From Ostreococcus lucimarinus (Eukaryota), in assembly GCA_000092065.1 (NCBI GenBank), contig CP000590.1: a stretch of DNA of 64,000 bases; one strand, given 5' to 3'. Numbering within the stretch: position 1 is the first letter of the stretch; each line of letters begins with the position of its first letter. The position numbers and the translations under genes are program-made. The notes beneath the pieces were generated by a model. It had not been told where the DNA came from, did not search any database, and saw only the letters and a list, made by a program, of their open reading frames with translations. This document shows positions 535-46,700 of the stretch, piece by piece.

Positions 535-636
535 CGCGCGTGGGCGTCGCCGCGCGCGCGTCGGCGTCGCTTTGTGCCGCGCCGCCGTCGGGATGGATTC
601 GCGACTTCGCGACGCCGCTCGCGTCGCGCGCGCGCC
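535..636. promoter_or_regulatory. Putative bidirectional promoter/5'UTR region between the divergent RAD23 (ATG ending at 534, minus) and RtcB (ATG at 637, plus) starts.
   Basis: Inferred only from the head-to-head arrangement of two start codons about 100 bp apart. No motif was identified. Confidence 0.3.
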
Positions 637-4554: not shown

Positions 4555-4627
4555 CATTTTCTATTCCGACCCGGCGTCGTGGTTCGCGTAACATTTTCTA
4601 TTCCGACCCGGCGTCGTGGTTCGCGTA
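4526..4627. repeat. 37-bp tandem repeat, about 2.8 copies (unit ATTCCGACCCGGCGTCGTGGTTCGCGTAACATTTTCT). Copy 1 contains the last 4 codons and TAA stop of the NmrA-like CDS.
   Basis: Direct inspection: copies start at 4526, 4563 and 4600 with period 37. The third copy diverges after ...cgcgtaa. Confidence 0.9.
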
Positions 4628-4869
4628 ATAATATTTTTGTAATTTCTTCGCCGTGAATCCGCGCGCTCGCGCGCCGCGCGTCGATCGTCGTTCGCGTCTC
4701 TCGCGCGCGGCGTCCTCTCGCGTTCGACGCAACCGCAACCGTTCGCCTCACTTCGCGGCACGCGCGCGCGCGACGCGCGACCGAGCGCGCGCGAGAGCGA
4801 GAGACTTTCGAACGCGTCGCGCGCGACGGCATCGCACCGCTCGACGCGCGCGCGCTGAATCGAACGAAA

Positions 4870-23691: not shown

Positions 23692-23948
23692 CCGACTGTA
23701 CCTTGTAACAGCAGCACCGTGGTAGCAGACAACACCCACGCCCCGCGCACGATGAACCGCACACGCGCGCGCGCGCACGTCAGATTGACGCACGAACGCG
23801 CGCGAACGCGCGAAGAAATCGCGTGCGCGTGTTTACCGCGCGAAGCCGCGCCCGCGACGCGCCCGCGACGCACGCGCGACGCGAACACGCGAACGCGCGA
23901 CGGTGAACACCCTCGGCGTCGCGCGATCGATCGCGCGTGGTGACGGCG

Positions 23949-26900
23949 ATGGCGAGCGAACCGGCGCGCGCGAAGTTCAAATCCCTGCGAGGATGGAACG
24001 TCGATAAGTACCAGTTCGATGTGCGCGCGCAGAGCGCGTACAACGTCCTGCCGGGGACGCAACGTTTGAAATTGCTGTGGAGGCGCGGACACAAGCGCGC
24101 GGAGACGAAGACGGCGAACGTGACGCGCGGGGAAGCGGTGTGGGATGAAACGCTGACGCTGTCGTGCTCGATGTTTGTGAATCCGAAGACTGGGATGTAC
24201 GAGAGCAAGCCGGCGATGTTCGTGCTGCAGACGGTGAACGAGGACGGGTCGATTGGGAAGACGTACGCGGAGGCGACGATTGATCTGTTGGAGTTTGCGT
24301 TGAATCCGGGACGGGAACTGTCGCAGACGGTGCCGATGAGACAAGGAGCGGTGTCGATGTTGACACATTTACAGTTCGCCGTCACGGCGACGCCGTTGGC
24401 GGAAAACGTGGCGTTGAGCGACGTGTCGAGCGCGCTGAGCGTCGCCGATCTAGCCGACGTCGCCGAGTTGGCAGCGACGAGCGCGGTGCCGGAAAAGTTG
24501 GCGGTGAACGTGATCGGGGAGCACGAAGATGAGGGATATTTCGATGAGAAACTCGATGTCAGAGAGGATGCGCAATCGGAAAGTGAAAAAGAGGATAGCG
24601 AATTTGCCTACTTTGACGAACGCCTGGCGTACAAGGTGGAGGGCGACGACACGGAACAACTTCCGCCGCCGACTGCGGAGGAACTATTATCGGGCGTTGA
24701 CGCTGAAGAAGGCATCGTACCCGGTGTGAAGATGATGCGCTTGATTGTCGGGAAAAAGTGCAAAATTTTCGTGCGGGGTCAGGATAACTTTGGCAACGCA
24801 CGCACGACAGGCGGGGACAACGTCGAGGGCGTGTTGATCGGTCCGAGCGGGCAGCGCGGGTTAGTGAGCACTAAAGACCACGGCGATGGCTCGTACTTGC
24901 TAGAGTTTACGTGCATGCAACAAGGGATTTGGACCCTTCGTACGCGGTTTAACGGTAGACTGAGCGTGGAGCGACACAAGCTCGTGGTTTCCTTCGGTCC
25001 GCTCACGGCCCAGGACGTTCGGGTGCAGTTACCGAAGCCGCCGTTCAGATGCGGTGCGTACACGGACATGCAAGTCGTTGTTGAGCATCCGGAAGATGGG
25101 AGAATTCTAACTGGTGCAGAGGCGTTTAACGTTCGCCTCGTCTCACCGGCGGGCTTGTCGTTGGGCGTTCCGCTCGACATTCGTCCCGGGACGACCGCCG
25201 CCGTCGCGCGAATCAACTGGCCCGAAGTTGGCGAGCATCAGCTTGACGTAAGACTAGATGGTGAATCGCTTCGCGGGTCGCCCATGCGAGTCGAAGTTGT
25301 GCCTGAGGATTTGTGCCTAGCCGCTTGTCAACTTCAAGGTCCGGGTGTTCATCGATGCACGGCGGGCATACGCTCCGCGTTTGTCATCGAAGCTCACGAC
25401 AGTCGTGGTAATCGTCTCCTTTCTGGAGGCGCGCCACTCTTTTTGGGCATTCGCACGGCATCGAATGAGTCGTACTCGGGTGAGATTGTTGATTTCGGCA
25501 ACGGCACGTACGAAGCTTCGTACTCTGTTCGTGTTTCTGGTTATTACGAATTATCGCTCGCCATCTTAGGTGAGGAACTCGTAATTAAAGGCTTATGTGA
25601 ACCCGGCAAGGCCGTCGTCGCGGGTTGTGAGCTGGTCGGCGACGCCGGATTGGACCTTGAAGTTGGCTCTTCCGGTCGCTACAGTATCATTCGTCACGAT
25701 GCATACGGCAACAGAGTGCCAACGCGTCAGGGACAAATCAAGTTCAAAGTTACCGCCGATGGACCTGGACCCGCAACTTGTACGATGATTGATAGAGCTG
25801 ATGGCGTTAGTGATGTCGATGTCAGTACCTCTGTAGCCGGGAGGTATTTCGTCCAGGTGACGGCTGGTGATCAAGAACCGATTCCTGGTTCGCCGTTTGA
25901 AGTCATCGCATATCCTAGTCCTGCTTCGCACGAAACGAGTGTGACGACAGTGTTCGGTGCACAGTTAGCCGCAAGTGATAGCGATGTCCTCGTGGCTGTT
26001 GCTGGCGAAGAGGTCTCGTTATCAGTAGCACCTCGTGATATGTACGGCAACGTCACTGTCTTCTCCAAGTCGGCGGCGATCACTGCGACAGCGACGGGAG
26101 GTGGCGTCTCGACTTCCTTTGAAGAACGCACTGGAACTCGCACGGAAGTTTCTTTGTTCTCGACTTTCAGACTAGCTGGGTCGTACTTGCTCACCGCAAA
26201 AATCGGCGACAAGGTGTTAGACGGCTACCCAAGGATTCTCACGGTTGTTTCGGCGGCCACTGAACCTCGAAAGTGCATGTTGTTTGGTGACGCGCTTCAA
26301 GGCGTGAGGTGTAACCGAGTTTCAACACTCACCGTGCACGCAGCAGATAAATTTGGAAACTTGAGATCGACGGGTGGCGACGTTGTCGATGTCAACTTGT
26401 GCTCACCCGACGGAAAGTACGTCGTTGCTTCAAAGGTTGATGACCACGCCGACGGAACGTACGGCGCAAAATTCAAGCTCGAGCGCCCGGGGACGTGGGA
26501 AATCCAACTCGTCGTCAATGGCCGCGGTGGCCGGACGCAAGTCAATGAGATTACTTCGTATTTTGCAGGCGTCAAAGCGAACGAGTGTACGTTTTCTGGC
26601 ATGGGTTCGGATGGTGTTGAAGGCGTCGTATGCTTTAAGCAGAGTGACATCGTCATCGAGCCAGCTGACTTTGAGCAAAACTCACGCCTCATGAGCGGGA
26701 AAGAAGCCGTCGCAGTCCGTATTCTCACGCCATCTGGAGGTATTAGCTCTGTGGATCTCAAGTTCGAAAATGGAAAATATAGAGGATCGTACACCTGGAC
26801 TCAGCCAGGTCAGCACACCGTGTCCGTGTCTCTTGATCAAGAAGCCATCGTGGGGTCGCCGTTTTCCGTTGAGGCCATGAGTGCGTTGCCTCAAATTGCC

Positions 26901-29900
26901 GAACTGGAGAACATGGCCGTCGGGGAGATTGCCGATATCCTTCCAAAGCTCAGTGGCGAAGGTGCATCGCAAGCGTTGCAGTCTCTTGGACCCGATAAAG
27001 CGGCCGAAGCGTTGGCGGGCAACACGCCCGAGTCAGCGGTGCGAATGATGGCGCATGTGTTCCCTGGAAATGTTGCGGAAATTCTTAGTTGCATGCGTCC
27101 TGACGCAGCCGCAGCGACAATCTCTGCGATGCCCGGCGAGCGAGCCGCTGAGGTTCTCAGCACAATGCAATCAAACGACGCGACGCAGCTGATGAAGAAT
27201 ATGTCGAGTGGGGAGATATCTGAAAAGGCTGAAATGTTCGCCGACGTCATTTGTGGCATGAAGGAAGACGATATGCTTGTGTGCGTTCGCGAGCTCATGA
27301 ATTCGCGAACCGCGGAGAAAGGTTTAAAGTCAGTGCTAGATAAAATGCCCGCGCGCGTCGTAGCTGAACTCACTGGTAAGCTGGATAAGGGTGAGAACAC
27401 CAGGCTTCTTTCCGGGCTTTCGCATGAGCGCACAGCCGCCATTGTCTCTAAACTGCCAGTTGAGCTGCAAGCCGGTGTCATTGGCCTGCTCGGCGGAGAT
27501 TCCATGTTCCAGATGACGAAGACCTTGTATGCTGCGTATAAAGTGGACAAGAATTCGTCCGCACAAGAGCGCAGTCGAATGAAGGCGGATGCCCAGGACA
27601 CGGGTCACCGGCTGGCCCCAGCTCTCGCTAGCATGGACACGGAGGAGCTCCGCGACAATTTCAAGCAAGCAACGCCCGAGCATATCGGTGGCTGCCTCTT
27701 TGCACTCATCGACGCAAAGCGCCGTCAGGTTGGCTCTAAAGCTATCGCTCGTCCCGTGGCACAGATGATGGAAGACGGCTCGATCGAATGGGGGGATGGT
27801 TCCATTTCTCACGTGAACGAAGACAGATCGGCAATCAATCATTCCGACGGAACTTCGGCATCCCTTCGTGTAGATGGTACTATCATCGATAGCGATGGAC
27901 AAGTGCTCAAACTTAGACCTGATGGGATCATCACGGCCGATGGTACTGTCCTAGGGGCCGACGGAGAAATCACCACCGCTCCGTCCGGTCCGTTGCACAT
28001 GTTCAGGGCACTGACGACGGAGCAGCAAACAGCGGCGATTCTTGAGCTCATCGAATTCAGTCAAACGGGTAACGCCGGCGAGATCTTGGTCGATCTCACC
28101 GCGACGGAGCTTCGCGAGACAATCCGCCCCATGGGTGCTAGCGACCAGGCGAAAGTCTTCATAGAAATCGGGCGAATGTCGCCCTCGCAAGCAGCTCGCG
28201 CTGCTTCAGTTCTCAGCCACACCGAAGCTGCATCAGTGGTGAGCATCATGGTGAATCCCGGTTCAAGCGGGCGATGCGACGAGCCATTCATGGGCCCGTT
28301 CCTCGAGGCGCTGGCGCCGCAGATTTTGCGTAACATCGAACCACCAACAGCTGTTGGCGGCGCGCTGGCAACGCATCTTTCCCCGACGGCAGCTGCTCAC
28401 GTTTTGCACAAGCTCGAGCCGATGGATGTGTCGCGTATCATCGAAGGAATGAGTCCAGCAGAAGTGCGCCAAGTCATCGAATCGAGTTCGAATATTCAGG
28501 CCGAAGCCGGTAAGGCTGTGAGCGATACTCCGCTCATCGCCGCGCTCGTGCCTTACGTGTCCGCCATGGATGACTCGCAAGCGGCGACGCTCTTGGAAGG
28601 TCTTCCTGCGGACATGGCTGTTGGCGTCATGATGTGCACGCCTGAAGAACGGGCTAAAGAGATTATGTCGCACACGCGAAGACGAGACTTGAAGGAGCGC
28701 ATAGCGAACAAATCCTTGATTCACCTCGACGCGTGTACTATCGTCAACCTTCGTGGGGCAGTAGCAGGGGAATCCTCTTCCTTCATTTTAGAAGCGAGAG
28801 AGCGCGGTGGAAACAGGATTACTTTTGGAGGCGGACGGTTGACAGTCGCCACGAAGCTGTTCTCCGCGCCTGGTCCTGGCGTTGAGCAAGGGACTGTCCA
28901 TGACCGCGGTAATGGTGAATACGTCGTACAGTTCACGAGCACCTTGGCCGGTAAGATCGCCGTCGTTGTCGAGGCTTCCGGACAATCTCGTGCCTGGGAC
29001 GTAAACATCGAGGCATCCGACGTCGTTATTCCAAAGTGTACGATCGAAAAGCAAGGATTGGAGAGTTGGACGGCCGGTAGTCCTGGTAGAATACTGCTTA
29101 CTTTGCGCGATCGCTTCGGGAATTTCGCTCATTCGTCGAAAAGTATCCTCGAGTTCGAAGCTCGCGCATCAGGACCTGGAGGCGTCATCGTCGAGCGCAA
29201 CATGTTGGATGACGGGAAAATTGAATTTCTCCTGAACACGACTGTCACTGGCATTTACAAAGTCGCCGTATCGTGCTTGGATACGAAAGAAGATTTGAGC
29301 GGCTGTCCCTTTGAAGCACGTATGGGGACCGACGCTCTCTCCCAAGCGGGCTGTACCGCCTCATTGCAATCTCTCACGAGTTCGACAAAGGGCCCGGGGG
29401 CGAAAGCCGCCGCCTATGGCGCCTGCGCCGCCATGGCGGGTGAAGAAGTCACCTGCGTTGTGGAGGCTCGCGATCGGTACGGCAATACGACTACTTTTGC
29501 AGGCGAACACGTGGCCGTCATTGCGTTCGGACCGGCGCACTTGCCCGCGGATAGACCGTTTGAAGTGGCCGACGTTCGCAGTGGCCGGATGGCGCTTCGA
29601 GCCATCTTCCCACGATCGGGGAGCTACACGATCGCTGTAACTGTTGACGGCATCCCGATCGCTACGTCTCCGCTCATCTTGCACGTTTTTCCGGGTGCGT
29701 GCGAAACGAGTCGTGCGGTCTTACGTGGTGACGCGCTCAATGGCATCGTCGCGAGTAAGATTACAAGTCTTCTTGTGCAAACAGAGGACAAGTACGGGAA
29801 CCATTGCCACGTGGGTGGCGACAGGGTGAATCTCTCCATGTCAGGACCGAACGGCATCAAAGTAAATTCTTTGGACGTCAAAGACAACGAAGACGGAACG

Positions 29901-32900
29901 TATTCTTTCTCATTCATCATTCCACAATCTGGTCGATGGACGATTCAAGCCGTCGTGAACGGTCGCATTGCAAAAGAGAGCACCACTGAAGTTGTCGTCA
30001 CATACGGCCCATTACACGCCGCCGCGTGCGTGTTGAAAGGAGGTCCTGGAATGAAACGTACGGAAGTTTGCGGTGCGCAGCGCGATATTTACTTGCAAGC
30101 TCTCGAATATGACGCAAACGGGCGCGGGATGAGCGGGCAAGAAGCTATCACAATGCACTTGATTACGCCAAGTGGTGCGACGCACACACTCGCCCCCGTT
30201 TTTGCCGAACGAGGCTCTCGCTACAAGGCCACGGTACGATGGTGGGAGGTTGGAAGACACGAGGTTGTCGCCGCAGTCGGGGGACAACCAGTTGTAGGTT
30301 CTCCATTCGTAGTGAACGTTGAAGCGCAGGAAGTGAGTCTGCCGATGTGTCGACTCTCGGGACCTGGCCTTCAGGGTGCTGTCGCGGGAGAGCGAGCCAC
30401 GATCCTCATCGAGTCAAGAGACGAACGCGGTAACCGACTCTTCAATGGCGGTGCACAAATGGGCATTGCCGTGCGATCGGGCGGTGAAACTCTTCGTGGC
30501 AAGGTGCAAGATTGCGGGGACGGTACGTATGAGGCGAGTTACATTGTCGAGCGTGCCGGACCGTTCGAGTTGTCACTGTTCCTCGGCACGGAGGCGGCTA
30601 CGTACAGGGCGACATGTAAGCCAGGACGCGTAGATTACGCCAAGTGCCGCGTTGATGGGGTGAATAATGGCGTATGGGTTGCTGGCGAGCAACTCACTCT
30701 CACAGTCACGCGCATGGATCGTTTTGGTAACAGAATCACCCGTCGCGAAGGGCTGGCGCCTTTCTTCGGCAAGGCGATTGGACCTGGAGATATCGTAAGC
30801 CAGTCGTTAGAACTCGGTAACGGAACGGCGGAAATCAAGTTGTACGGCACAGTTGCTGGAAACTATCAAATCGGTGTCTACGTTGCCGACACTCCCATTG
30901 TGCCTTACGCGAATGAGGAAGCCGAAGCTCTTATGGAGAACCAACAGCTCCTCCTCGAAGACTCAAAATCCGCTAAGTCCAAAGCAGATAGCAAAAGGAT
31001 TGAAGCGCAAGAGTCTGGTCTTCGAACAGATTCTCTCGCGGGTACCGTGCGTTCGGCGTCAAAGAGTGATATCAACGCTGGCAAGCCATTGGCCGCGGTT
31101 CCAGGAACCTTCATCGCCTCTGAAGACATTGAAGCGATGAAGGAAGTAACGCTGCCAAAGGTGACGACAATGAATGGCGTCGAAATGGTTCCGTTACCGA
31201 ATGGTTTGTTCGAGATGAACTTGATACCGACGATTGCGATGCCGAATTGCTGTGAGTTAGAAGTCATTGGTGGCACGCGCGCCGATGATTCATGGATCAC
31301 CCCAGCGGGTGACGAAGTGATTGTCAGAGTCATAGCCCGAGACAGATACAAGAATGAAACGCACTGGGAGGAGGGTCAAACGATCACCGTCGAGGCACTC
31401 GGTCCAGAGTTTCTGAGTTTCTCCTCGCACGGAACGACGAGCTTACAGAACGAGTTCGTCGCGAAGATGATTCGCGCGGGCACGTTTGAGCTTCGAGTGC
31501 TTTGTGACGCCCTTCCAGTCTGCTGGAGGGCAATGCAAGTCATCGCTGGCTTCACTTTCGCGCCGCGATCGATTTTGAGTATGGATGGGTTGAAGGACGT
31601 CAAAACTGGTAACATCGTTCGATTGACACTTCGAACAGTCGATAGGTATGCCAACCTCCGTCTTAGTGGTGGAGATACGGTGCAGCTAGCGCTCCAAGGT
31701 CCGAACGGCGCATTCGCTCGCCAAGTGAGCGTGACGGATCATCAAGATGGTACTTACGCGCTTGAATTCCAAGTCACTGCCGCAGGCAGGTGGATTATGA
31801 GTACGCGCATCAATAGTGTTCTTCACGTCGAGGGCGGAATTTCTTTTGTCGTTGCGTTCGGTACACTGACGGCAGAGGAGGCGGTGGTTTCTTTCGATCC
31901 TCCTTTGCCTAAAAACGGATCTGTTGAATGCGGTCGCACAAGCGATCTGATGCTGCATGGCGCCGGTTGGGAGACGAACAATCGCGTCATGACCGGTTTG
32001 GAGGCTGTGAGCGTTCGCTTGACGCATCCCTCTGGTTCTCAAGAAGCTATTCCGGTCACGTTGTCAAGGGATAACAAGTGTTATACCGCCAAGATCCGCT
32101 GGCTCCATCCTGGTCACCACTCTGTGAACATCATGTTGGACGGTGTTGTGGTTCCAGGCACGCCAGTTCGCGCCAACGCAGAGGGTAAAAAACTCGCTCT
32201 TATTTCATCAGCTCTTGTCGGCGATGGTGCCACAACTGCCACCGCCGGAGAAGATGCCGAGTTTACGCTTCTCGCTCGCGATTACGGAGGAAACCAAATT
32301 AACAAGGGCGGCGCTGACTTGGCGATTTCTTGTCGAGCCAGTGGCAGAGAACCAATTGCTGGTGAAATCCATGATAACGGCGACGGCTCGTACCGCTGCA
32401 TCTACTCGAGTACGATTGCGGGCGATATCGAAGTTGTCTTAACGTTAAATGAAGGCACGACGCAGACGAAGCGTTTGATCAACGTCAAATGCGAAGCGGC
32501 TGAGTGCGAAATCAGCGAATGTCGTGTTGACGCTGGTAAAATGATGTTACTTTGGAATGCGGGAGACGCTGGTCTAATTCGCGTCCAACGCCGGGACAAG
32601 TATGGTAACCCGACGACTAAAGATACCGCAAATGGTCTTAACCGTTTCGCCGCCGAAGTTGTCGGGCCAGGATGGGCTGACTGTGAAGCCTTGGAGCTTG
32701 GCGATGGTTCGTGCGAACTTCGACTTGTCGCTCAGGCTGCTGGGTCCTACGACATCTCTATCGTCGCCTTGGCAATCGATGAAGAAACAATGACCCCACT
32801 CGATGTTCCATCCGTCGAACTCACGTCTTTCAGCGCTATGGTGAGCAGTCAAGAGACTTTCCCGTCTTCTTGCGTCGCCCGAATGGCACTTGTCAACGGC

Positions 32901-35900
32901 GGTAAAGAGGAAACGCTCGCCGAAGTGGACGCCGATATTACGCTGCCGTCCACCATCATGGCAGGGGATGATATTGCGATGCACGTCTTATCACGCGACT
33001 TGCACGGGAATCACACTAACTGGCTTGGCGGCGAACGTATCGCCGTTCACGCACGCGGACCCATCGAAGTTCCGTTCGTTCCGATGGATGCGGTCGGCTC
33101 TTTCACGGCGGTCATCACAACGGCCGGAGCCTACTCGGTCGCCGCCCTCGTCGGCGACTGTGCGTGCAACGGATGGCCAAGAATCTTGCAAGTCGTCGCT
33201 GGTCCGTGTAACCCGGACAAGTGCACGGTAAGTGGGGATGCGCTCGGTAATTGTGCGACAGCGACTCCTATTTCGCTGTTGATGCAAGCTACGGACCAGT
33301 ACGGTAATCCGCGATCGCTTGGCGGTGATTTCATTGAAGCAGTGCTGATCAACGAAGACGAAGGTACCATTGATACACAGATAATCGACAATACCGACGG
33401 TACTTACACAATTAATTTCGAGCTGGACATGCCGATTGAGCACGAGCTGTGGATTTCTGCCAATGGCCTGCGCGAGAAACAAAGTCGCTACAGCTTGATG
33501 CCCAGCCTTGGCGCGCTGCAAGCGTCGGATTGCGTCATCAACGGTCTCGGCGGCGAGCGGTTGTGTCTCGCCGATCGCTCGACACTTTTCGTGCAACCAG
33601 CGAATCCGAGTCGCGTAATGAGTGGCAGGGAAGCCGTGGTGGTGTCTGTTCGCATGCCGAGCGAAATGTCCTTCAACTTGCCCCTGAAGTTTGAAACCGA
33701 TTCGCGAAGATTTTCGTGCCCTCTTCTTTGGGTTGAAGTCGGCGATCATCACATCACTGTCAATCTTGCTGGTGAAGTCGTTCCGGGTTGTCCATTCATG
33801 GTTCGTGTTCGAGATCCAGATGAAGAATTTGAGGAAATCGAAGGCGAGGAGTCGCAGACGGCGATGACCATGGTTCCCGCGGATAACTCTTTCGGATTTG
33901 TCTACACCAACGACAAGACGGCCGTCGCCGCTGCGCAAGCCGCGAGTGGCATCGGCACGACAGACGTGGACCCGGACGCAGAAGACGAAGACGATGAAGA
34001 TGCCTTCACATTTGGAACCGCACTCAACCCGCCACCTCCGCAACAAGTGGATTCGACCATCGCCATTATCCGCAAGCTCGAGCTCGAGGATGCAGGTGAT
34101 GCGCTCTCTGATATGCGCCCGGAGGTTGCCGCGGCGGTTTTGCAGCGCTTGAATCCACAAAAGGCTGCGTGTGCTGCGGCGATGATGTCTCAGACTGAAC
34201 TTAGTGCAGCGGTGGTAATGATGACGGAGGAAAGCGTATTGAGCGTGCTCAACGACGCGCCACCGGCCGCACGTGCGTCTATCATCGAATCTTTACCACC
34301 CGCTGCTGCGGCACAAGTGATGAATGGTATGGATGCCCGCGCCGCTTCCTTATGCGTCAATAAGCTCATTGATCCCGACGTTGCCGCGGCAATCATCGCT
34401 AAGATGAAACCCACAAAGGCAGCCGAGATGATGCAGTTTATCCCAGCTGATGCACAGAAGGCAATTTTGATCGAACTCGACCCGGTATCCATGTGCGCAT
34501 TGGTCACTGGTGCGTATGAGCCGACGGCGGCGGATGCCATCAGGCGAGGCCTGCAAGTGTCCCCGGACACGGTCAGTATCATCTTTACCACCGCTCCGGC
34601 GGAAGAGTGCGCTAAGATGGTCCGAAACATGCAACTTGACGCTCAAGGTTGTGAAATTGCAGCCGGTGCTATGCAGCGCGCCGCGCGAACGCATCCTCGT
34701 GCCGTTGAAAATATTCTCGCCATGACGAAGATGACCGCCGTCGACGGCGGCGCCGCCATCAAGGCAGCCGTGTTGAGACAACCGGGTGGTGATGTGATCG
34801 TCAAGAACGCCGAAACGAGTATAGCAAAGGGCGAGATTGAAATCCCCGCGCCCGTCGTGAAGACAAGGCAAGCCAAATTTAAGTGGGGTGGCACCGGTCT
34901 TAAGCCGAGTAAGACTGCATCCGAGCGCGCGGCGCGTTCGCTCGCCGGTATGGCTCCAAAGGTGTCTGCTCAAGCGCTCGCCGACATGCGTCCCGGTGCA
35001 GCGGGCGCGGTGCTCGCATCGATGGACTCTGAACGTATCTCCAGTATCATCTCCGTTATGGATCAGAATGTCATGGCGAGCGCGGTCGGAAGTATGGAGG
35101 CTGAAGAGGCATTACGCGTCATCAGCAGCTCATCGAATGCGGCGCGCGTGACGATTGTTGAAGCGCTCCCGGCTGGCGCGGCAGGATCCATCTTGAGTAT
35201 GTTACCGGCAGACGAAGCCGCGGACTTGCTTCGAGCCATGGACGCCAGCGCCGCCATTGAAGCAGTAAGCTCGATGCCCGCCAAGGCGGCTGCACTTGCC
35301 TTGCAAGAGCTCCCTGATGATCAAATGTCGACGTATTTGCTCACGCTTCCACCGAGCACGGCGGCACCTATCCTCTCGCACATGTGCGAGAGAGAAGAAG
35401 GCCGAGTGAGTGCATCCAAGGCGTTACAGCTGTTGAGCACGCTCAACGCAGATAAGACTACATTACACATCAGTGGAATGTTGCAACGAGATCCGAAGAG
35501 CACAGCGAAAATCATGACCGAACTCACCCAAGACGCTCGCGCAGCTGTGTTGGGTGCCTTGAACGCAAAGGATGCTGGCAAGGCGCTTCAATTCTTGGGG
35601 CCTCAAAATGCCGCATCTTCGCTCGTGGCTGCGGTAGCTGCGGGTACGAGTCCAGCGATTGCCGCAGTTGCACTCGAATCGTTGGCACGCCTCGGTGTTT
35701 GGCCACCAAGCATTGACGTACCGCGTTCTGGCGCCAAAGTGCGAGGTCCGCTTGCTGACGTCCTGTTGGTCATGTTCGAGCTTGAGCCTGAAGCAGCAGC
35801 GCAAGTACTCACCGCGCTCGATCCCGATGTCAGCGCATCGGCCGTCGGAGCAATGACCCCTGCAACTGCTGGTGCACTCGCGAGTGCCATCCCAGATCCA

Positions 35901-38900
35901 AAGGCTGCTGCGCTCTTGTTGGAGTCAATGCCGCACGCCAAACGGGCGGCGATGATCATCAAGATGCGTCCGCAGCCCGCCGCGGATGCGGCATCGAACA
36001 TGGAAACAGAGAACATCCTCGCTGTGATGAAAACGCTGTATGAAACGTTGGATCCGGCGACAATGTCGATTGCGAACGACATCATCTCGAAGATGGAGCC
36101 TTTCAAAGCTGGTTCCGTCGTTGCGGGTCTGGATGAAGCACACGCTGTCCGCATAATGTCAGCGTTGCCTCCTTTGGTTGCTGCCGCCTTGATTTCCAGT
36201 GGTGGTCTTCCGAGTGACAAGGCTGGTACATTCCTCGATCGCGTGAAGGTAGATCAAGCGGAGAATGTCCTTGCGGCACTCCCTCCGACTCTCGCGGAGG
36301 AAGCCGTGCAGAAGGTGTCAAGCACCGAGCTCAAGTCGAAGACGGCGTCTCGCACGGTGGTGCACCTGACCTCATCCCACATCTCAGGTCCTGGATGCGA
36401 AGAATGCGTCGCCGGTCTGGAAACCAAGTTCATCTTCGAAAGCACCAATCCAGGTGGTGTCCGAATCCACAAGGGTGGCGCGACATTGCAGTGCACAATC
36501 CATCATTTGACCTTCAAGTCGCAAGATGGGACGAACAGCGTGGATTTCATTCGAGGCGAAGGCAAACACGTGCAGGTGCAAGACATGATGAACGGTGCGT
36601 ACGAGTTCCCTTACAAACTCGATAAAGCCGGTGAATATGATGCCATGATTACGTCTGCTGGGCAGACTCGCGTCGTGCGAATCAGGTGCAAACCAACGAT
36701 ACTTGATCCGACGCAGTGCTCGGTGGTGCCGGTTGAGGAAGGAACCACATGGCGGGCGGGTGAAGTCCTCGTAGTCAAGGTGCTTTGTCGAGATCGATTC
36801 GGAAACGATGTTGCGCCACCGAAACAGGGTGATGCTGGTGTTGATTTCGTCTTGCTGGCGGATGGAGAAGGGCCGAGCGTCGTCGAGGCAGAGGTCGTCA
36901 ACGACCCAGCGGGTGTCGGCGCCTTCGCGAAATTCCGCGCGACGGAGTGCGGCAAGTACTCGCTTCGCATTTTTACGGCAGACGTCGCTCGTCAATGGTG
37001 GGGTGGTGTACAACGCGACTGCATTCAAGGTGCACCGATCGACATCGTTTTGACGGCCACCGCCGCAGATGCCTCGCGCTCAAGCGTGCAGCTCAGCGGC
37101 ATTCGTGAACGAGGTGGTGGCATGCTTCTCGGTTTGGCTGGTCGACAAATGGCCATCATCATTTTCGCCAGAGACAAGTTCAACAACGAAGCAGTCTTTG
37201 ATAATCAAAGACTGCGTGTTGACGCTGTCGGTGTCGCTACTTCTGTATTTAGCCTTACCTCGAAAGAGCCCGGAGAAGCAATGTTTACGAGTGCACTCCA
37301 GCGAGCAGGTACTTACTCGCTTCGCGTGACTGTGGACGGTAAGCCCGTGCACGGTTTCCCCCGTAACTTGCAGGTTGTTGCCGCTCAAACGGATCCGCGT
37401 TTCTGCTCTATTCGTGGAGATGCGCTCAACACTGTCGTTGCAGGCGAAGTCACGAAGGTTCTCGTGAATGCTGCGGATCGGTACCAAAACGTCTGCCTCG
37501 AAGGCGGTGATAGACTCACGGCGCGCCTTCTCGGTCCGGCGGGTTCTATCGATGCTGATACTTCTGATTTCGGCGATGGTACGTACCGATTGTCGTTCGT
37601 CGTCCCACGGGCTGGTGAGTGGAGAATCTTCTTAGCGGTTAATGGCGTGGAGAATCCGAAACCCGCGACTTCATTCGTCGCTTCCCAAGGCGGCTTGACG
37701 TCAAAGCAGCTCATGCTCATTCCAGCCGACAAGCGTGACGAGTACATGGTGGGTTCTGAATCTGAATTCTTCATTCAGTCCATCGATTACGAGGTCGGAG
37801 GTCTCGAAGTGAACGGCCATGAGGCTATCTGTCTGCGATTAATCGCACCCTCTGGCTTGTCCACGATTGTTCCCTTGAGGTTGACCAAAGACAAGGCGCG
37901 TTACCGCGCCAATATAATGTGGCCTGAAGTGGGCTCGCATTCGCTCATCGCGGCTTTGAACGGCGAAACTGTCGTTGGATGTCCATTCTCTGTGCAAACC
38001 GCCGCAGCACAGGTGTACGTCCCGGGATGTAAGATGACTGGCGCGGGCTCGACGAAGGCTGTCGCGGGCGAACGAGCGTCGTTCATCGTTGAGGCACGAG
38101 ACAACAGAGGCAACCGCATGATGGGAGGAGGCGCTACTCTGAGCGCCGTCGTACGATCTGCGTTGACCCCGGGGAAATCAGTCAAGGCCACCATACTTGA
38201 TCAAGGAGATGGTACGTACGTGTGCAGCTACACGATTAACAAAGCTGGTCCGTTCACCATCGTTGTGTCCTCACCCAACTCGCAAGCAACGCTCAGCGCC
38301 ACGTGCGTTGCCGGACCAGCGGACCCAGCATACTGCCGAATCGACGCGAGCGACGTCAAACAGATTGAAGCTGGTACGCGCGGCATCGTCAAGGTGTTAC
38401 GCGCCGATCGCTTCGATAACTTAATTCCCGCTGGTGCGGAGTTGATGCCATTCCGCGTTGAAGTCACTGGCGTCGGCCCGGCGGATGTCGAAACCGTCGA
38501 AGCAGGAGACGGTTCGGCAGAAGTTCGATTCGAGGCTCGTGCAGTCGGTCGATACACTCTTTACGTGTGGAGCGGCTTCAAACGCGAACCGGTGTTGGGT
38601 TCTCCGTGCGAGATTCAAGTCCTACCCAGTCAGCCCGCGGCTTCATCCTGCAAGGCGCAGTTACAAGGCGCCGAGTTCAAAGCTCAAGGCGTCTACAGCG
38701 CGCAAGCGGGTACCACTGTCACGGTGCGCATGCAACCGCGCGACAGATTCGGGAACACCACGGCTTGGAAGTCCTGGCAAACACTCAGCGTTACCGCGAG
38801 TGGTACCGAAGACATAACGTTTACAGAAATTGATGATCAAGAAGCAGTCTCGTCCCGCGGTGTGTTTTCTGCGACGTTTTCGAAAGCCGGCGCGTACGTC

Positions 38901-39383
38901 GTCTGGGTTACCGTCGGTGGACAAACCATCGTCGGCTGGCCGCGAGTCGTGCAAATCATTCCGGGCACCACCAACGCCAACGTCTCTCAGCTTCGTCCCG
39001 AGGCCGATAGTATGGCTCTCGCCGCCGAACTGGTGCGCCACGGTGGAAACGACGCTTCTCTCATCGACGCGCTCGGCCGTCAATCCACCGACGTGGACAA
39101 GCTGCGCGGTGAGATGATCGCTTTGAAGCAAAAGTTGGCTTCCTACGAACGCGCTGAACACGACGCGCGTCAGCGTGGCACAATAGATCCCACCGCCACC
39201 GCGCTGACGACTGAGCAAGTGGACAAGAAGAATATGAAAACCATGCAGTTGATGGTCGCCGAGACCGAGTCCGATAGAGGCACGCTCGACTCCGCCAACG
39301 ACGACGACGAGTTCGGCGACGCGTCGCCATTCTATGATGACAACGTTGACGACGCGGAGTTTGAAGACGCACGATCGCCGTGA
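23949..39383 (+). CDS. Giant single-exon protein (5144 aa). Layout: N-terminal NT-C2-like C2 domain; acidic linker; about 7 filamin/ABP280 Ig repeats; Ala-rich MgtE_N/FliG-like helical-repeat block (about nt 26880..28740); about 17 filamin repeats; acidic linker plus a second helical-repeat block (about nt 34050..36360); about 9 filamin repeats; C-terminal coiled coil and acidic tail.
   Basis: It is one stop-free frame of 15.4 kb with diverse composition. The N-terminus (KFKSLRGWNVDKYQFDVRAQ...RGEAVWDETLTLSCSMFV...KPAMFVLQ...IDLLEFA) fits the NT-C2 (EHBP1/PMI1-type) pattern. Dozens of roughly 95-aa units carry the filamin signature (e.g. GQDNFGNARTTGGDNVEGVLIGPSG...DHGDGSYLLEFT; DRYGN...GG...V...GP.G......D..DGTY.......AG.W). 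The helical blocks show L..M.P..AA.VL..M periodicity (e.g. SDMRPEVAAAVLQRLNPQKAACAAAMMSQTELSAAVVMM...SLPPAAAAQVMNGMDARAASLCVNKLIDPDVAAAIIAKMKPTKAAEMMQFIPADAQKAILIELDP). Confidence 0.9.
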   Translation: MASEPARAKFKSLRGWNVDKYQFDVRAQSAYNVLPGTQRLKLLWRRGHKRAETKTANVTRGEAVWDETLTLSCSMFVNPKTGMYESKPAMFVLQTVNEDGSIGKTYAEATIDLLEFALNPGRELSQTVPMRQGAVSMLTHLQFAVTATPLAENVALSDVSSALSVADLADVAELAATSAVPEKLAVNVIGEHEDEGYFDEKLDVREDAQSESEKEDSEFAYFDERLAYKVEGDDTEQLPPPTAEELLSGVDAEEGIVPGVKMMRLIVGKKCKIFVRGQDNFGNARTTGGDNVEGVLIGPSGQRGLVSTKDHGDGSYLLEFTCMQQGIWTLRTRFNGRLSVERHKLVVSFGPLTAQDVRVQLPKPPFRCGAYTDMQVVVEHPEDGRILTGAEAFNVRLVSPAGLSLGVPLDIRPGTTAAVARINWPEVGEHQLDVRLDGESLRGSPMRVEVVPEDLCLAACQLQGPGVHRCTAGIRSAFVIEAHDSRGNRLLSGGAPLFLGIRTASNESYSGEIVDFGNGTYEASYSVRVSGYYELSLAILGEELVIKGLCEPGKAVVAGCELVGDAGLDLEVGSSGRYSIIRHDAYGNRVPTRQGQIKFKVTADGPGPATCTMIDRADGVSDVDVSTSVAGRYFVQVTAGDQEPIPGSPFEVIAYPSPASHETSVTTVFGAQLAASDSDVLVAVAGEEVSLSVAPRDMYGNVTVFSKSAAITATATGGGVSTSFEERTGTRTEVSLFSTFRLAGSYLLTAKIGDKVLDGYPRILTVVSAATEPRKCMLFGDALQGVRCNRVSTLTVHAADKFGNLRSTGGDVVDVNLCSPDGKYVVASKVDDHADGTYGAKFKLERPGTWEIQLVVNGRGGRTQVNEITSYFAGVKANECTFSGMGSDGVEGVVCFKQSDIVIEPADFEQNSRLMSGKEAVAVRILTPSGGISSVDLKFENGKYRGSYTWTQPGQHTVSVSLDQEAIVGSPFSVEAMSALPQIAELENMAVGEIADILPKLSGEGASQALQSLGPDKAAEALAGNTPESAVRMMAHVFPGNVAEILSCMRPDAAAATISAMPGERAAEVLSTMQSNDATQLMKNMSSGEISEKAEMFADVICGMKEDDMLVCVRELMNSRTAEKGLKSVLDKMPARVVAELTGKLDKGENTRLLSGLSHERTAAIVSKLPVELQAGVIGLLGGDSMFQMTKTLYAAYKVDKNSSAQERSRMKADAQDTGHRLAPALASMDTEELRDNFKQATPEHIGGCLFALIDAKRRQVGSKAIARPVAQMMEDGSIEWGDGSISHVNEDRSAINHSDGTSASLRVDGTIIDSDGQVLKLRPDGIITADGTVLGADGEITTAPSGPLHMFRALTTEQQTAAILELIEFSQTGNAGEILVDLTATELRETIRPMGASDQAKVFIEIGRMSPSQAARAASVLSHTEAASVVSIMVNPGSSGRCDEPFMGPFLEALAPQILRNIEPPTAVGGALATHLSPTAAAHVLHKLEPMDVSRIIEGMSPAEVRQVIESSSNIQAEAGKAVSDTPLIAALVPYVSAMDDSQAATLLEGLPADMAVGVMMCTPEERAKEIMSHTRRRDLKERIANKSLIHLDACTIVNLRGAVAGESSSFILEARERGGNRITFGGGRLTVATKLFSAPGPGVEQGTVHDRGNGEYVVQFTSTLAGKIAVVVEASGQSRAWDVNIEASDVVIPKCTIEKQGLESWTAGSPGRILLTLRDRFGNFAHSSKSILEFEARASGPGGVIVERNMLDDGKIEFLLNTTVTGIYKVAVSCLDTKEDLSGCPFEARMGTDALSQAGCTASLQSLTSSTKGPGAKAAAYGACAAMAGEEVTCVVEARDRYGNTTTFAGEHVAVIAFGPAHLPADRPFEVADVRSGRMALRAIFPRSGSYTIAVTVDGIPIATSPLILHVFPGACETSRAVLRGDALNGIVASKITSLLVQTEDKYGNHCHVGGDRVNLSMSGPNGIKVNSLDVKDNEDGTYSFSFIIPQSGRWTIQAVVNGRIAKESTTEVVVTYGPLHAAACVLKGGPGMKRTEVCGAQRDIYLQALEYDANGRGMSGQEAITMHLITPSGATHTLAPVFAERGSRYKATVRWWEVGRHEVVAAVGGQPVVGSPFVVNVEAQEVSLPMCRLSGPGLQGAVAGERATILIESRDERGNRLFNGGAQMGIAVRSGGETLRGKVQDCGDGTYEASYIVERAGPFELSLFLGTEAATYRATCKPGRVDYAKCRVDGVNNGVWVAGEQLTLTVTRMDRFGNRITRREGLAPFFGKAIGPGDIVSQSLELGNGTAEIKLYGTVAGNYQIGVYVADTPIVPYANEEAEALMENQQLLLEDSKSAKSKADSKRIEAQESGLRTDSLAGTVRSASKSDINAGKPLAAVPGTFIASEDIEAMKEVTLPKVTTMNGVEMVPLPNGLFEMNLIPTIAMPNCCELEVIGGTRADDSWITPAGDEVIVRVIARDRYKNETHWEEGQTITVEALGPEFLSFSSHGTTSLQNEFVAKMIRAGTFELRVLCDALPVCWRAMQVIAGFTFAPRSILSMDGLKDVKTGNIVRLTLRTVDRYANLRLSGGDTVQLALQGPNGAFARQVSVTDHQDGTYALEFQVTAAGRWIMSTRINSVLHVEGGISFVVAFGTLTAEEAVVSFDPPLPKNGSVECGRTSDLMLHGAGWETNNRVMTGLEAVSVRLTHPSGSQEAIPVTLSRDNKCYTAKIRWLHPGHHSVNIMLDGVVVPGTPVRANAEGKKLALISSALVGDGATTATAGEDAEFTLLARDYGGNQINKGGADLAISCRASGREPIAGEIHDNGDGSYRCIYSSTIAGDIEVVLTLNEGTTQTKRLINVKCEAAECEISECRVDAGKMMLLWNAGDAGLIRVQRRDKYGNPTTKDTANGLNRFAAEVVGPGWADCEALELGDGSCELRLVAQAAGSYDISIVALAIDEETMTPLDVPSVELTSFSAMVSSQETFPSSCVARMALVNGGKEETLAEVDADITLPSTIMAGDDIAMHVLSRDLHGNHTNWLGGERIAVHARGPIEVPFVPMDAVGSFTAVITTAGAYSVAALVGDCACNGWPRILQVVAGPCNPDKCTVSGDALGNCATATPISLLMQATDQYGNPRSLGGDFIEAVLINEDEGTIDTQIIDNTDGTYTINFELDMPIEHELWISANGLREKQSRYSLMPSLGALQASDCVINGLGGERLCLADRSTLFVQPANPSRVMSGREAVVVSVRMPSEMSFNLPLKFETDSRRFSCPLLWVEVGDHHITVNLAGEVVPGCPFMVRVRDPDEEFEEIEGEESQTAMTMVPADNSFGFVYTNDKTAVAAAQAASGIGTTDVDPDAEDEDDEDAFTFGTALNPPPPQQVDSTIAIIRKLELEDAGDALSDMRPEVAAAVLQRLNPQKAACAAAMMSQTELSAAVVMMTEESVLSVLNDAPPAARASIIESLPPAAAAQVMNGMDARAASLCVNKLIDPDVAAAIIAKMKPTKAAEMMQFIPADAQKAILIELDPVSMCALVTGAYEPTAADAIRRGLQVSPDTVSIIFTTAPAEECAKMVRNMQLDAQGCEIAAGAMQRAARTHPRAVENILAMTKMTAVDGGAAIKAAVLRQPGGDVIVKNAETSIAKGEIEIPAPVVKTRQAKFKWGGTGLKPSKTASERAARSLAGMAPKVSAQALADMRPGAAGAVLASMDSERISSIISVMDQNVMASAVGSMEAEEALRVISSSSNAARVTIVEALPAGAAGSILSMLPADEAADLLRAMDASAAIEAVSSMPAKAAALALQELPDDQMSTYLLTLPPSTAAPILSHMCEREEGRVSASKALQLLSTLNADKTTLHISGMLQRDPKSTAKIMTELTQDARAAVLGALNAKDAGKALQFLGPQNAASSLVAAVAAGTSPAIAAVALESLARLGVWPPSIDVPRSGAKVRGPLADVLLVMFELEPEAAAQVLTALDPDVSASAVGAMTPATAGALASAIPDPKAAALLLESMPHAKRAAMIIKMRPQPAADAASNMETENILAVMKTLYETLDPATMSIANDIISKMEPFKAGSVVAGLDEAHAVRIMSALPPLVAAALISSGGLPSDKAGTFLDRVKVDQAENVLAALPPTLAEEAVQKVSSTELKSKTASRTVVHLTSSHISGPGCEECVAGLETKFIFESTNPGGVRIHKGGATLQCTIHHLTFKSQDGTNSVDFIRGEGKHVQVQDMMNGAYEFPYKLDKAGEYDAMITSAGQTRVVRIRCKPTILDPTQCSVVPVEEGTTWRAGEVLVVKVLCRDRFGNDVAPPKQGDAGVDFVLLADGEGPSVVEAEVVNDPAGVGAFAKFRATECGKYSLRIFTADVARQWWGGVQRDCIQGAPIDIVLTATAADASRSSVQLSGIRERGGGMLLGLAGRQMAIIIFARDKFNNEAVFDNQRLRVDAVGVATSVFSLTSKEPGEAMFTSALQRAGTYSLRVTVDGKPVHGFPRNLQVVAAQTDPRFCSIRGDALNTVVAGEVTKVLVNAADRYQNVCLEGGDRLTARLLGPAGSIDADTSDFGDGTYRLSFVVPRAGEWRIFLAVNGVENPKPATSFVASQGGLTSKQLMLIPADKRDEYMVGSESEFFIQSIDYEVGGLEVNGHEAICLRLIAPSGLSTIVPLRLTKDKARYRANIMWPEVGSHSLIAALNGETVVGCPFSVQTAAAQVYVPGCKMTGAGSTKAVAGERASFIVEARDNRGNRMMGGGATLSAVVRSALTPGKSVKATILDQGDGTYVCSYTINKAGPFTIVVSSPNSQATLSATCVAGPADPAYCRIDASDVKQIEAGTRGIVKVLRADRFDNLIPAGAELMPFRVEVTGVGPADVETVEAGDGSAEVRFEARAVGRYTLYVWSGFKREPVLGSPCEIQVLPSQPAASSCKAQLQGAEFKAQGVYSAQAGTTVTVRMQPRDRFGNTTAWKSWQTLSVTASGTEDITFTEIDDQEAVSSRGVFSATFSKAGAYVVWVTVGGQTIVGWPRVVQIIPGTTNANVSQLRPEADSMALAAELVRHGGNDASLIDALGRQSTDVDKLRGEMIALKQKLASYERAEHDARQRGTIDPTATALTTEQVDKKNMKTMQLMVAETESDRGTLDSANDDDEFGDASPFYDDNVDDAEFEDARSP

Positions 39384-43779: not shown

Positions 43780-46700
43780 ATGCGCGCGATGCGGACGCGC
43801 GATCGGGACGCAGACGCGCGAGAGGCGATGGAGACGGCGGCGAAGACGGTGTCGAAGCTCGCGGCGGACGCCGAGCAAGCCGACTTGGTGGAACTGCTTC
43901 GAGAGGCGCCTCGGGAGGCGTATTCGTTTCAAAACGCGGGATGGCCGAGCGATGTGGTGGGTATGAAGAAGGAGGAACTGCCGGGGGTGGTGCTGGAGCG
44001 GTACAACACGCGGCAGTCGGTGTGCTTTTGCGGGGTGCTGCCGGAGATTTCGCGCGCGTGGGCGAGCGTGGACAACGCGTTGTTTTTGTGGAGGTTGGAC
44101 GTCGCGGACGACGTGCCGGTGGAGTACAGCGGCGAAGAGCAAGCGATCGTGGCGGTGGGGTTGGTGAAACCGAAGAGTGGGGTGTTTTTAGAGGCGATCT
44201 CGTACGTGCTCGTCATCGCGACGACGGTGGAGCTCGTCATGGTGGGGGTGTGCTTGGAGGACGACGGACGCGAGCTCACGCTGCATCCGCTGCAGTACTC
44301 GTGCCCGACGGACGCGACCATCATGAACGACATCACGTCTACGCCGGAGGGTAGGATCTTCTTAGCCGGTGCGGACGAAGCGCTTTATGAACTCGTGTAC
44401 GCGCAGAGCGACACGTGGCACAGCAAGCGATGCAAAAAGGTGCGACACAGTCAAAACTTGTCCTCGCTGTTGCCTTCGGTGCTGCGATTGAAGGGCTCGG
44501 ACGCTTTGAAACAAGTCGTCGTGGACGCCAAGCGCGGGATTTTGTACACGCGCAGCGAACAAGGCGTGGTGGTTGTGTACGACGTCGGCGCCGCGGCGAA
44601 GGACGCGCCGAGAAAAGTCGCCGAGGTTAAAAACGTCGCGCAACTCGCCGCGCAGGCTCGCGGTCAAGGGTCTCTGTTTGCATCGGCGACGTCATCGGTG
44701 AAGAAAGGGGCGAAGTTAGTGCACGTCGCATTGGTGCATCCGGAGGAGTCGTCCGTCGTGACGTTGGTGGCGATTTGCGCGGATGGAAGACGCATTTACC
44801 TCACCGCTCTTCCGCCGTCGCGCGGGTACTCGTACGGCGTCGCCTCGGGTACGGGTAGCTCTCGACAAGGGCCTTCGCGACTGTCCGTGGTCGAACAACG
44901 CGACCCGCCGCCGCAAGGAGGAAATCAGCGCGGTATGACGACGGCGCAGGCGCTCTTGAACACCACGTCGAGGGCCTTGGAAATTGAAGCCGGGTTTTAC
45001 AGCAGCGGCGTTTTGTTACTGTCGGACGCGACGCCGAACGACTCTGACGCGCGATTGATACTTTCAAACCGCGACCTGGCGCTACCCCCACACTTGCAGT
45101 TGCCGCCGCCGACGCCCCCACCGAGCTCGGGAAGCGGCACTCGCGGTTTGCGCGAAGTCGTCACCTTGGAACAACTTGAAGGGCGCTGCGCGTCGAGTCT
45201 CGGATCGCTCGGTGAGATTCCTATGCCAAAGAGCGTACAGGACGCGATCGATCCGCCATACCCCACGGGGACGCTTCCAGAAGCACGTGTAAAATCGACG
45301 GGACTACTCTCTGAGCTCGTCACGCAATACATGTGCCCGAGAAGAACGTTTGTGTTGATGACCAACGCCGGGTTGGTTCGATTCGAGAAGGCGCGCCCGA
45401 TTGACACGTTGAGAAGTGTTCTTGAAAAGAACATTCCGGAACAAATCGAGGAGTTCTTTAAGAGTTACGGACCGATTGAAGCTGCGGCAATGTGCGTCGC
45501 GTTATCTGTTTCGGGATCCGAATCCAACGCCGTGATCCTCGCCGCGAAGCGGGCCTTTGACGACCCGCGTCTCACCGGCGAGCCGAGCATCGTGGAGGAT
45601 AGCTACGCGCAAAATCAAGAGAATAATGGTGGATCTTTCAACATGGGGCGTGCGATCGTGCAACCGGTGCTGACTTTTTCGTCGGCGCAGCGTGGACTGT
45701 ACTTGTTCACGGCTCGCATAATGTCTAGCACGTGGGAACGAGCGATCATTGTGCCCGTTCGCGCGCCCGTTCAAACGAATTTGAACGGCAACTCGCGACC
45801 GCTATCGCCGGCGATGAAGATCGCGAACAAAGCGCTCGGCGCGGTGCAAGCGGCAGCTCGGTACATGAGTGAAGAACCGGCGCTCAGATGCTCCTTGGAT
45901 CCGACGTTGCTCAAGAATTTGCACGATCGCTTGATGCCGTTGGTGACTTTCTTGAAGCAGCGTAGACCGCGCATTAGCAGCGGCGCCACGATGTCGCAGA
46001 CGAAGCGGCGTCGAGTGCGTTCATCCGGCAGCGAACTCACGGCACTCCAGGAAGAAGAGCGCAGTCTCTCGGCCCTCTCCGCCTTGGTGAGCCGCACGGC
46101 GCAGGCTTTGTCTCTCATTAGAATCATCATCACTGATGAACGTTTCTCACGAGTGGCCGACATGCTTCCCTCGGCGATTCGCAAGGAGCTGTCACAGGTA
46201 CGTTTCCGCGCTCCTACGCCTCGTCTTTTCTTTTTTGCCTGCGCGATGATGATTTCCCATATATCAATCTGTCAATCCCCTGATTCACAGTGATGACAAC
46301 TCATATGGTGCCCTTCCACTGAGCGTCCACTTTTACTTTTCCGCGCTGTGTTCTTCTGAGACTTTCGACTGACTTTTTGTTTTACACTGCGACAGCTCAC
46401 CTTGAAGAAGTTGGTTTCGACGACGCACGGGGCGCGTTTGGCGGGTGCGCTCATCGAAGCGATGATGTCTCACATAATGTCTCACGCTCGTCACAGCGCC
46501 GAGGAATTAGCTGCGGAGCTCCAAAAGGGATGCCCAGACTTTTTCGGCGCAGATTCGAGGACATTTTACCACGCCAGAGACTTGTTGCAGTTGGCGCGCG
46601 ACGCGCGCGCGAGAAAGGAAAACGTCTTGCGCGACCAATACGTGAACGATGCGATCGCTTTATTCATGAAGGTGCCGACTTCTGGAGACTTATCGGCCGT

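Follow-up and report, generated by a model that had tools for sequence, protein, structure and literature searches.

A giant gene with an immunoglobulin super-repeat

The DNA analysed here, a stretch of 64,000 nucleotides (nt) from contig CP000590.1 of Ostreococcus lucimarinus (GenBank assembly GCA_000092065.1; hereafter the window), contains an intron-free open reading frame (ORF) for a giant protein in which a long array of filamin-type immunoglobulin (Ig) units is headed by an NT-C2 domain and interrupted by two blocks of MgtE_N-like helical modules (Table 1). Translation likely starts at the first ATG of this ORF (position 23949), giving a product of 5,144 amino acids (aa). The product occurs letter for letter in public assemblies, as part of a 90%-identity cluster with 407 members, and eight full-length cluster members differ from the window by 0-8 residues, with the ORF unbroken. 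Since identical or near-identical full-length copies are found in public assemblies, the giant ORF is a real and intact gene.

Most of the protein is made up of the Ig array. The Pfam Filamin profile matches the three Ig-bearing segments with E-values of 8e-48, 4e-86 and 1.5e-51, and a search with a hidden Markov model (HMM) that was built iteratively from units of the giant itself gives 29 filamin-type Ig units, to which a further one, recognisable at aa 3205, brings the number to 30. When these 30 units are compared all against all, the four top matches of nearly every unit share its index modulo five, and the array is thus a strict super-repeat of five unit types (a to e), present six times, reminiscent of the super-repeats of titin. 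With H1 and H2 denoting the helical blocks, the layout reads NT-C2, acidic linker, abcdeab-H1-cdeabcd, charged linker, eabcdeab, acidic linker, H2, cdeabcde, tail. Both blocks are located between a type-b and a type-c unit, after unit 7 in the second super-repeat and after unit 22 in the fifth, and therefore 15 units apart, and the two blocks align with each other at their starts and at their ends. This arrangement fits a body of two copies of the pattern "abcde ab-H-cde abcde" in which block 2 would later have expanded, and the equal phase of insertion suggests an old duplication of a segment of 15 units plus helical block, and a ruler-like design. The unit-to-unit scores do not uniformly favour the partner at i+15, which indicates that the history of duplication was more complex than one event.

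The N-terminal domain is of the EHBP1/EEIG1/PMI1 type and is what the giant shares with NT-C2 proteins such as EHBP1/EHBP-1 and plant PMI1; it is retained in the orthologues. The NT-C2 domain of EHBP-1 binds PI(4,5)P2 membranes (PMC4894640), and by analogy that of the giant is likely its membrane-binding head. Unlike NT-C2 proteins and filamins, however, the giant has neither CH nor bMERB domains, and it differs from both in its 30 Ig units, in their five-unit super-repeat and in the interruptions by helical solenoids. No transmembrane-like segment was found anywhere in the protein (the top 19-residue Kyte-Doolittle mean, 1.83, falls within an Ala-rich repeat), and no signal peptide is apparent because the N-terminal residues fall in the NT-C2 region; as far as can be judged from the sequence, the giant is a cytosolic protein.

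Two further segments are notable. The linker after the NT-C2 domain holds two acidic YFDE[KR]L motifs (24537-24626, aa 201-230) that are FFAT-like in appearance; this reading was dropped, as the motifs are kept only in a relative of 75% identity and not in more distant orthologues. In the C-terminal tail a short segment that includes LRGEMIALKQKLASYERAEHDARQRG is heptad-like, and the acidic end carries the motifs DDEFGD, PFYDD and AEFED. The tail could be a site of dimerisation or adaptor binding.

Table 1. Features of the giant gene and its product, with nt positions counted in the window
Feature	Position (nt)	Residues (aa)	Strand	Basis or remark
Giant-protein ORF, intron-free	23937-39383		+	5,148 codons counted from first in-frame GTG; ORF list, translation
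NT-C2 domain	23994-24368	20-144	+	Pfam PF10358, E 3.8e-18, 66 bits vs cut-off 25.2
Ig units 1-7, types a b c d e a b	24720-26876	262-980	+	Pfam Filamin E 8e-48, own iterated HMM, all-against-all scores
Helical sub-block A (block 1)	26877-27521	981-1195	+	18 short helices, 12-residue period
Non-periodic linker, 165 aa	27522-28016	1196-1360	+	No convincing Pfam match, no 12-residue period
Helical sub-block B (block 1), divergent MgtE_N-like module set	28017-28721	1361-1595	+	
Ig units 8-14, types c d e a b c d	28722-30884	1596-2316	+	Pfam, own HMM, all-against-all scores
Charged linker, unit 14 (type d) to unit 15 (type e)	30885-31289	2317-2451	+	Translation, gap in Ig map
Ig units 15-22, types e a b c d e a b	31290-33806	2452-3290	+	Pfam, own HMM, all-against-all scores
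Acidic linker preceding second helical region		3291-3374		
Second, larger MgtE_N-like region (block 2), ~9 modules	34059-36371	3375-4145	+	Pfam MgtE_N E 2.1e-32, 1.1e-14
Ig units 23-30, types c d e a b c d e	36372-38966	4146-5010	+	Pfam, own HMM, all-against-all scores
C-terminal tail: short heptad-like segment, then acidic Phe/Tyr-containing end	38967-39380	5011-5148	+	Translation only

Identity of the helical modules

The preliminary description of this locus had placed about 600 aa of Ala-rich helical repeats at 26880-28740, as an interruption of a filamin array. The interruption is confirmed with slightly shifted limits: the non-Ig sequence of block 1 extends over 615 aa (aa 981-1595, nt 26877-28721), with Ig units on both sides that end at about aa 980 and begin at about aa 1604, and the two peptides quoted as examples are both present (aa 1014-1080, nt 26976-27176, and aa 1489-1517, nt 28401-28487). 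The repeat itself, which has a period of 12 residues, occupies less of the block than had been described, since only about 450 of the 615 aa belong to it, in two sub-blocks (A and B) split by the linker, and the alanine content is only moderately high (13.5-14% in block 1; 20.6% in the second helical region). In a hydrophobic autocorrelation, the peak at lag 12 has z-scores, computed against 1,000 shuffles, of 5.4 for A, 3.4 for B and 8.3 for the second helical region, as against 1.7 for the linker. Block 1 contains about five modules, and the net charge of the helical blocks is acidic (-9, -11 and -13). Of the linker, the first half is conserved in an orthologue of 40% identity (P0004, alignment A1). 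The second half consists of a Gly/Asp-rich stretch (aa 1277-1352, nt 27765-27992) that includes DGTIIDSDGQVLKLRPDGIITADGTVLGADGEITT, looks non-helical and resembles a ~33-residue repeat of P0078, an unannotated protein of 677 aa; in the same alignment P0004 shows no counterpart to this stretch, in a region where the gene call of P0004 is unreliable.

Block 1 matches the Pfam profile MgtE_N (PF03448) in four stretches with an E-value of 9.3e-32 (110 bits, cut-off 25.9) and the profile FliG_M with 1.6e-10 (41.5 bits, cut-off 25; positions 16-53 of the 76 in the profile), while a match of the giant to FliG_N is sub-threshold (23 vs 25 bits). The first 110 aa of sub-block A alone cover MgtE_N positions 3-95 of 102 (E 1.7e-13, 51.4 bits). 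Sub-block B, when searched alone in pieces, reaches 24.6 bits against the same profile and thus falls short of its cut-off, and A and B are homologous to each other according to hhalign (probability 97%, E 1.1e-10, 154 columns). As compositional controls, the same 615 aa were reversed, fully shuffled in three versions and shuffled within 12-mers in one, and none of these sequences had a Pfam match at E ≤ 10. No ARM or HEAT family of Pfam was found on the giant even at E ≤ 1. The MgtE_N/FliG identity, which the preliminary description had read from the spacing of residues, is therefore borne out by Pfam; neither of the outcomes that it had named as contrary, a missing MgtE_N/FliG match or a better fit of ARM or HEAT repeats or of low-complexity Ala-rich helices, was found.

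When a profile of sub-block A built from orthologues was run against the PDB, 14 of 15 matches were to FliG or MgtE (best E-values 7e-4 for FliG and 6-7e-3 for MgtE), the remaining one being a MarR regulator (E 0.66); phmmer with the block as single query sequence retrieved no relevant PDB entry. The AlphaFold2 models, for which small alignments of orthologues were used, are confident and reached a predicted local distance difference test (pLDDT) score of 88.3 and a predicted template modelling (pTM) score of 0.80 for A, with 18 helices of ~6-12 residues, and 87.4 and 0.79, respectively, for B. The modules form a right-handed superhelix of short helices, as does the N domain of MgtE. Such an ARM-like right-handed superhelix, with a packing unlike that of canonical ARM repeats, has been described as the PF03448 fold common to MgtE, FliG and FlgY/FlbB/MotE (PMC13023049; bioRxiv 10.1101/2025.02.19.638559). 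We consider it highly probable that the modules belong to the MgtE_N/FliG superfamily and are short-helix solenoids with ~12 residues per helix. That they are generic ARM or HEAT repeats, or low-complexity Ala-rich helices that mimic MgtE_N, is very improbable: Foldseek against the PDB found nothing at E ≤ 1e-3 and listed designed ARM and Pumilio structures intermixed with FliG and MgtE at similarly weak E-values, but the lack of ARM and HEAT matches in Pfam and the empty shuffled and reversed controls argue against it, as does the period of 12 residues per helix, compared with a unit of ~40 residues in ARM or HEAT repeats.

The likeness to the N domain of MgtE (PDB 2oux, 2yvx, 8gpv, 8gps) consists in the sequence profile match of block 1, whereas the giant has the module in tandem and inside a eukaryotic Ig-domain rod. 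No part of the giant matches a CBS domain in Pfam at E ≤ 1, and the five-helix membrane domain of MgtE has no Pfam match in it either. Several metagenome copies in the cluster bear the automatic name "Mg/Co/Ni transporter MgtE" (JGI/IMG names), which is a misnomer, as channel, CBS and transmembrane parts are all missing; the reading of the giant as a magnesium transporter or MgtE channel that these names imply is refuted on the same grounds.

With FliG and the E-ring head of FlgY/FlbB/MotE, in which the fold works by stacking and docking, the giant shares the FliG_M match. A reading as FliG rotor protein was rejected. Pfam gives no FliG_C match in the giant, and the EHPQR motif of FliG is absent: "SEHPQT" aligns to "gvfPsa" of the profile and to "HVFPGN" of the window, so that EHPQ stands opposite VFPG and only the proline is kept. 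Ostreococcus is not known to have a flagellum.

In the literature searched on MgtE_N with filamin, NT-C2, flagella or Ostreococcus, no paper on the giant was found. A 2026 preprint describes ostta09g01910 as "MORN-Filamin-Invasin_D3"; this domain description differs from that of the giant. None of the 15 cluster members listed, out of 407, has an NCBI accession.

Orthologues, other MgtE_N arrays and the origin of the modules

Word-indexed searches retrieved only a handful of relatives, and an exhaustive scan with HMMER, covering 1.84 billion representative proteins, gave 67 with E ≤ 1e-3; many of these are fragments of orthologues that also contain neighbouring filamin sequence. An orthologue colinear with the giant over its whole length, with ~40-56% identity and both helical blocks in place, is encoded on a 220-kb contig (L004). 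The GC content of this contig, like that of another contig with a distant orthologue (L002), is ~0.70, which together with the level of identity suggests, on sequence grounds, that L004 stems from a different but related alga. A metagenome contig (L003) carries an orthologue of the block with 63% identity directly after an ORF with NT-C2 and Filamin domains. The two ORFs of L003 are in the same frame and separated by one stop codon (4045-4047), which is due to an error in sequencing or else marks a genuine interruption.

The preliminary description had further considered the domain rare in eukaryotes. Arrays of MgtE_N are indeed uncommon and unstudied there, but they are not unique to the Ostreococcus giant. 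Chloropicon primus encodes a protein with a PAN_4 domain and seven MgtE_N modules (QDZ23986, P0059), which UniProt already names by its MgtE_N domain; six modules are present in a protein of the nemertean Tubulanus polymorphus (XP_074642653), a tandem array occurs in the microsporidian Ordospora colligata (KAM0672251), and in other array proteins, to which no source organism was assigned, the modules are accompanied by Death or PDZ domains. Two proteins that combine PAN_4 with an MgtE_N array (P0059 and P0098) have a strongly hydrophobic N-terminal leader and no later transmembrane-like segment, and so some eukaryotic MgtE_N arrays may be secreted.

Among the bacterial relatives, the module occurs singly in proteins of ~420 aa with PRC-barrel, MgtE_N and CBS domains, in proteins with a helix-turn-helix (HTH) domain and in canonical MgtE N termini, and in arrays in Effusibacillus dendaii (WP_200759405), in a PSCyt1 protein, in an RTX/LGFP protein and in a protein of 7,269 aa (L005 1001-22810, GCA_964604705.1). 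The last of these, which has at least seven tandem MgtE_N modules and several transmembrane-like segments and adjoins an Lnt-type gene on a bacterial-looking contig, is the best non-orthologous match of block 1. A YadA-like adhesin of Bartonella (P0068) was discarded as an artefact of repeats or low complexity; in a local re-test it matched no piece of the giant. The tandem-array proteins, among them those of Chloropicon, Tubulanus, Ordospora and Effusibacillus, are like the giant in that several modules are found in a large, uncharacterised, non-transporter protein, but their identity to the block of the window amounts to only 24-33%, and none of the scanned array proteins joins MgtE_N modules with filamin repeats or NT-C2.

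The modules might have been acquired by horizontal transfer from bacteria into an ancestor of the algal lineage and expanded afterwards, the alternative being inheritance from an old eukaryotic pool. The preliminary description had offered domain acquisition or an unrecognised eukaryotic use of the repeat, and the present data fit both alike. A bacterial source, which we regard as possible yet rather unlikely, would agree with the per-domain scores of module 1, which are 41-49 bits against bacterial single-domain MgtE_N proteins and 20-39 against eukaryotic arrays, and with the 7,269-aa protein as top non-orthologue. There is no close donor, however, as identity to non-orthologues does not exceed ~36% and the scan yielded so few matches; several other eukaryotes have arrays too, and the orthologue of 40% identity contains the helical blocks. 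Codon usage speaks against such a source as well: GC at third codon positions (GC3) is 0.59-0.63 in the helical blocks and equal to that of adjacent Ig units (0.57-0.59). The NT-C2 region has a GC3 of 0.81, the remainder of the giant, Ig and helical alike, one of 0.57-0.63, and the neighbouring genes lie at 0.69-0.81. It is this low GC3 after the NT-C2 region that causes a dip in GC to ~0.55 across the gene (23949-39380); the contig of a distant orthologue has no comparable dip. Uniform GC3 and the blocks in a distant orthologue together exclude a recent transfer or a chimera. An assembly chimera or contaminant, in which a bacterial fragment would have been fused to a eukaryotic gene, has nothing beyond the bacterial flavour of the domain in its favour and can be dismissed in view of the same continuous ORF in the eight full-length cluster members, the colinear orthologues and the uniform codon composition across the junctions. 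An old bacterial origin would concern only where the modules came from and is compatible with the functional reading given below, in which they act as hubs.

The surroundings of the gene agree with the eukaryotic scaffold assumed in the preliminary description, the neighbouring ORFs encoding a BUB1-like kinase, DDX23/PRP28, a nucleoporin, Ipi1/TEX10, a Myb protein, an aldehyde dehydrogenase and CofD; the protein cluster of one of these neighbours bears the names Ostreococcus sp. 'lucimarinus' and O. lucimarinus CCE9901. The nucleoporin gene lies in two ORFs on the plus strand (43780-46293, with Nup133-type N/C domains, and 47184-48482, with the continuation of Nucleoporin_C), and this split indicates at least one intron or frame change between them.

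A possible membrane-anchored scaffold

The overall best explanation, to which we assign a probability of roughly 0.6, is that the giant is an Ig scaffold headed by NT-C2 and equipped with two MgtE_N/FliG-type blocks for docking or stacking. The NT-C2 domain would anchor one end of the protein to a membrane, the Ig array would form a long rod and the two helical blocks would serve as docking or self-stacking hubs, so that the whole might act as a membrane-anchored scaffold or ruler. At ~4 nm per Ig domain, 30 domains would span ~120 nm, a sizeable fraction of an Ostreococcus cell of ~1 µm across. The regular super-repeat suggests, by comparison with titin, that a periodic partner could be matched or measured along the rod. 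The function of the helical blocks as hubs for docking or self-association is the more tentative part, for which we would put the chances at somewhat less than even. It is modelled on the protein-protein contacts that the PF03448/ARM-like fold makes in FliG and in the ring proteins FlgY/FlbB/MotE, where it is involved in stacking, docking and ring formation (PMC13023049; bioRxiv 10.1101/2025.02.19.638559).

Some observations weigh against the scaffold explanation. No CH actin-binding domain was found in the giant with Pfam; nothing was found on partners, localisation or expression of the protein; and the helical blocks appear to be less conserved among orthologues, with ~39% identity in sub-block B compared with ~54% in some Ig segments, which would fit a role as spacer too. 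The likeness to filamins consists in the long arrays of filamin/ABP280-type Ig domains, and as the CH domain is missing, the analogy ends at the Ig fold. A true filamin was rejected for the same reason and because the N terminus is an NT-C2 domain.

The helical blocks might alternatively be mainly mechanical in role, as spacers or springs by which the length or the compliance of the Ig rod is determined, and not binding hubs. Their regular phase of insertion within the super-repeat would be expected of such elements, as would the apparently weaker conservation of the helical sequence relative to some Ig units and a number of modules that differs between the blocks (~5 vs ~9). But orthologues of 40% identity keep the solenoid surfaces and the block boundaries, and wherever the fold has been characterised it serves as a surface for contacts (PMC13023049); this makes a mainly mechanical role unlikely.

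Less likely still, the acidic modules could be responsive to Mg2+ and change their conformation or packing with the free ion, thereby coupling the state of the scaffold to the daily Mg2+ rhythm of Ostreococcus. The ion contributes to the circadian timekeeping of this alga, the MgtE-type transporter of Ostreococcus has no CBS domain, and eukaryotic SLC41 proteins are devoid of the N-terminal regulatory domain (PMC6410215). Mg2+-linked timekeeping together with a transporter that lacks CBS makes a switch attractive, and the helical blocks are net acidic; their acidity is modest, however, and similar to that of the Ig regions, and the absence of CBS domains from the giant counts against a sensing mechanism of the MgtE kind. 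In the structure of MgtE, it is the CBS domains, or their interface with the N domain, that take part in most cytosolic Mg2+ sites. In its most specific form, for which we see only a slim chance, the two arrays would be Mg2+-sensitive switches in a titin-like, super-repeated ruler, through which the level of Mg2+ would alter the shape of the scaffold or its binding of partners at the membrane. If true, the sensor fold of MgtE would here have a regulatory function without a channel attached, in a cell whose cytoskeleton has few components.

The fold as such is already known, and the sequence of the giant is public under a wrong automatic name. What is new is that tandem MgtE_N modules occur in a eukaryotic giant headed by NT-C2, always at the same phase of a five-Ig super-repeat. 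We therefore regard the protein as an uncharacterised architecture and not as a new principle, and it overturns no current knowledge. The MgtE_N/FliG fold had previously been described in bacterial contexts, i.e., in the sensor of a Mg2+ channel, in the flagellar rotor and in the FlgY/FlbB/MotE ring, while here it is the repeated building block of a conserved protein of 5,144 residues, probably a cytosolic scaffold, of an alga that is among the smallest free-living eukaryotes. Apart from correcting a misleading annotation, the finding points to a scattered and unstudied set of eukaryotic proteins with MgtE_N arrays, and the possible measuring of a periodic partner would be relevant to how picoeukaryotic cells are built. 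Since O. tauri allows targeted gene replacement, the giant is genetically tractable and offers a concrete case in which the role of this fold in eukaryotes can be asked.

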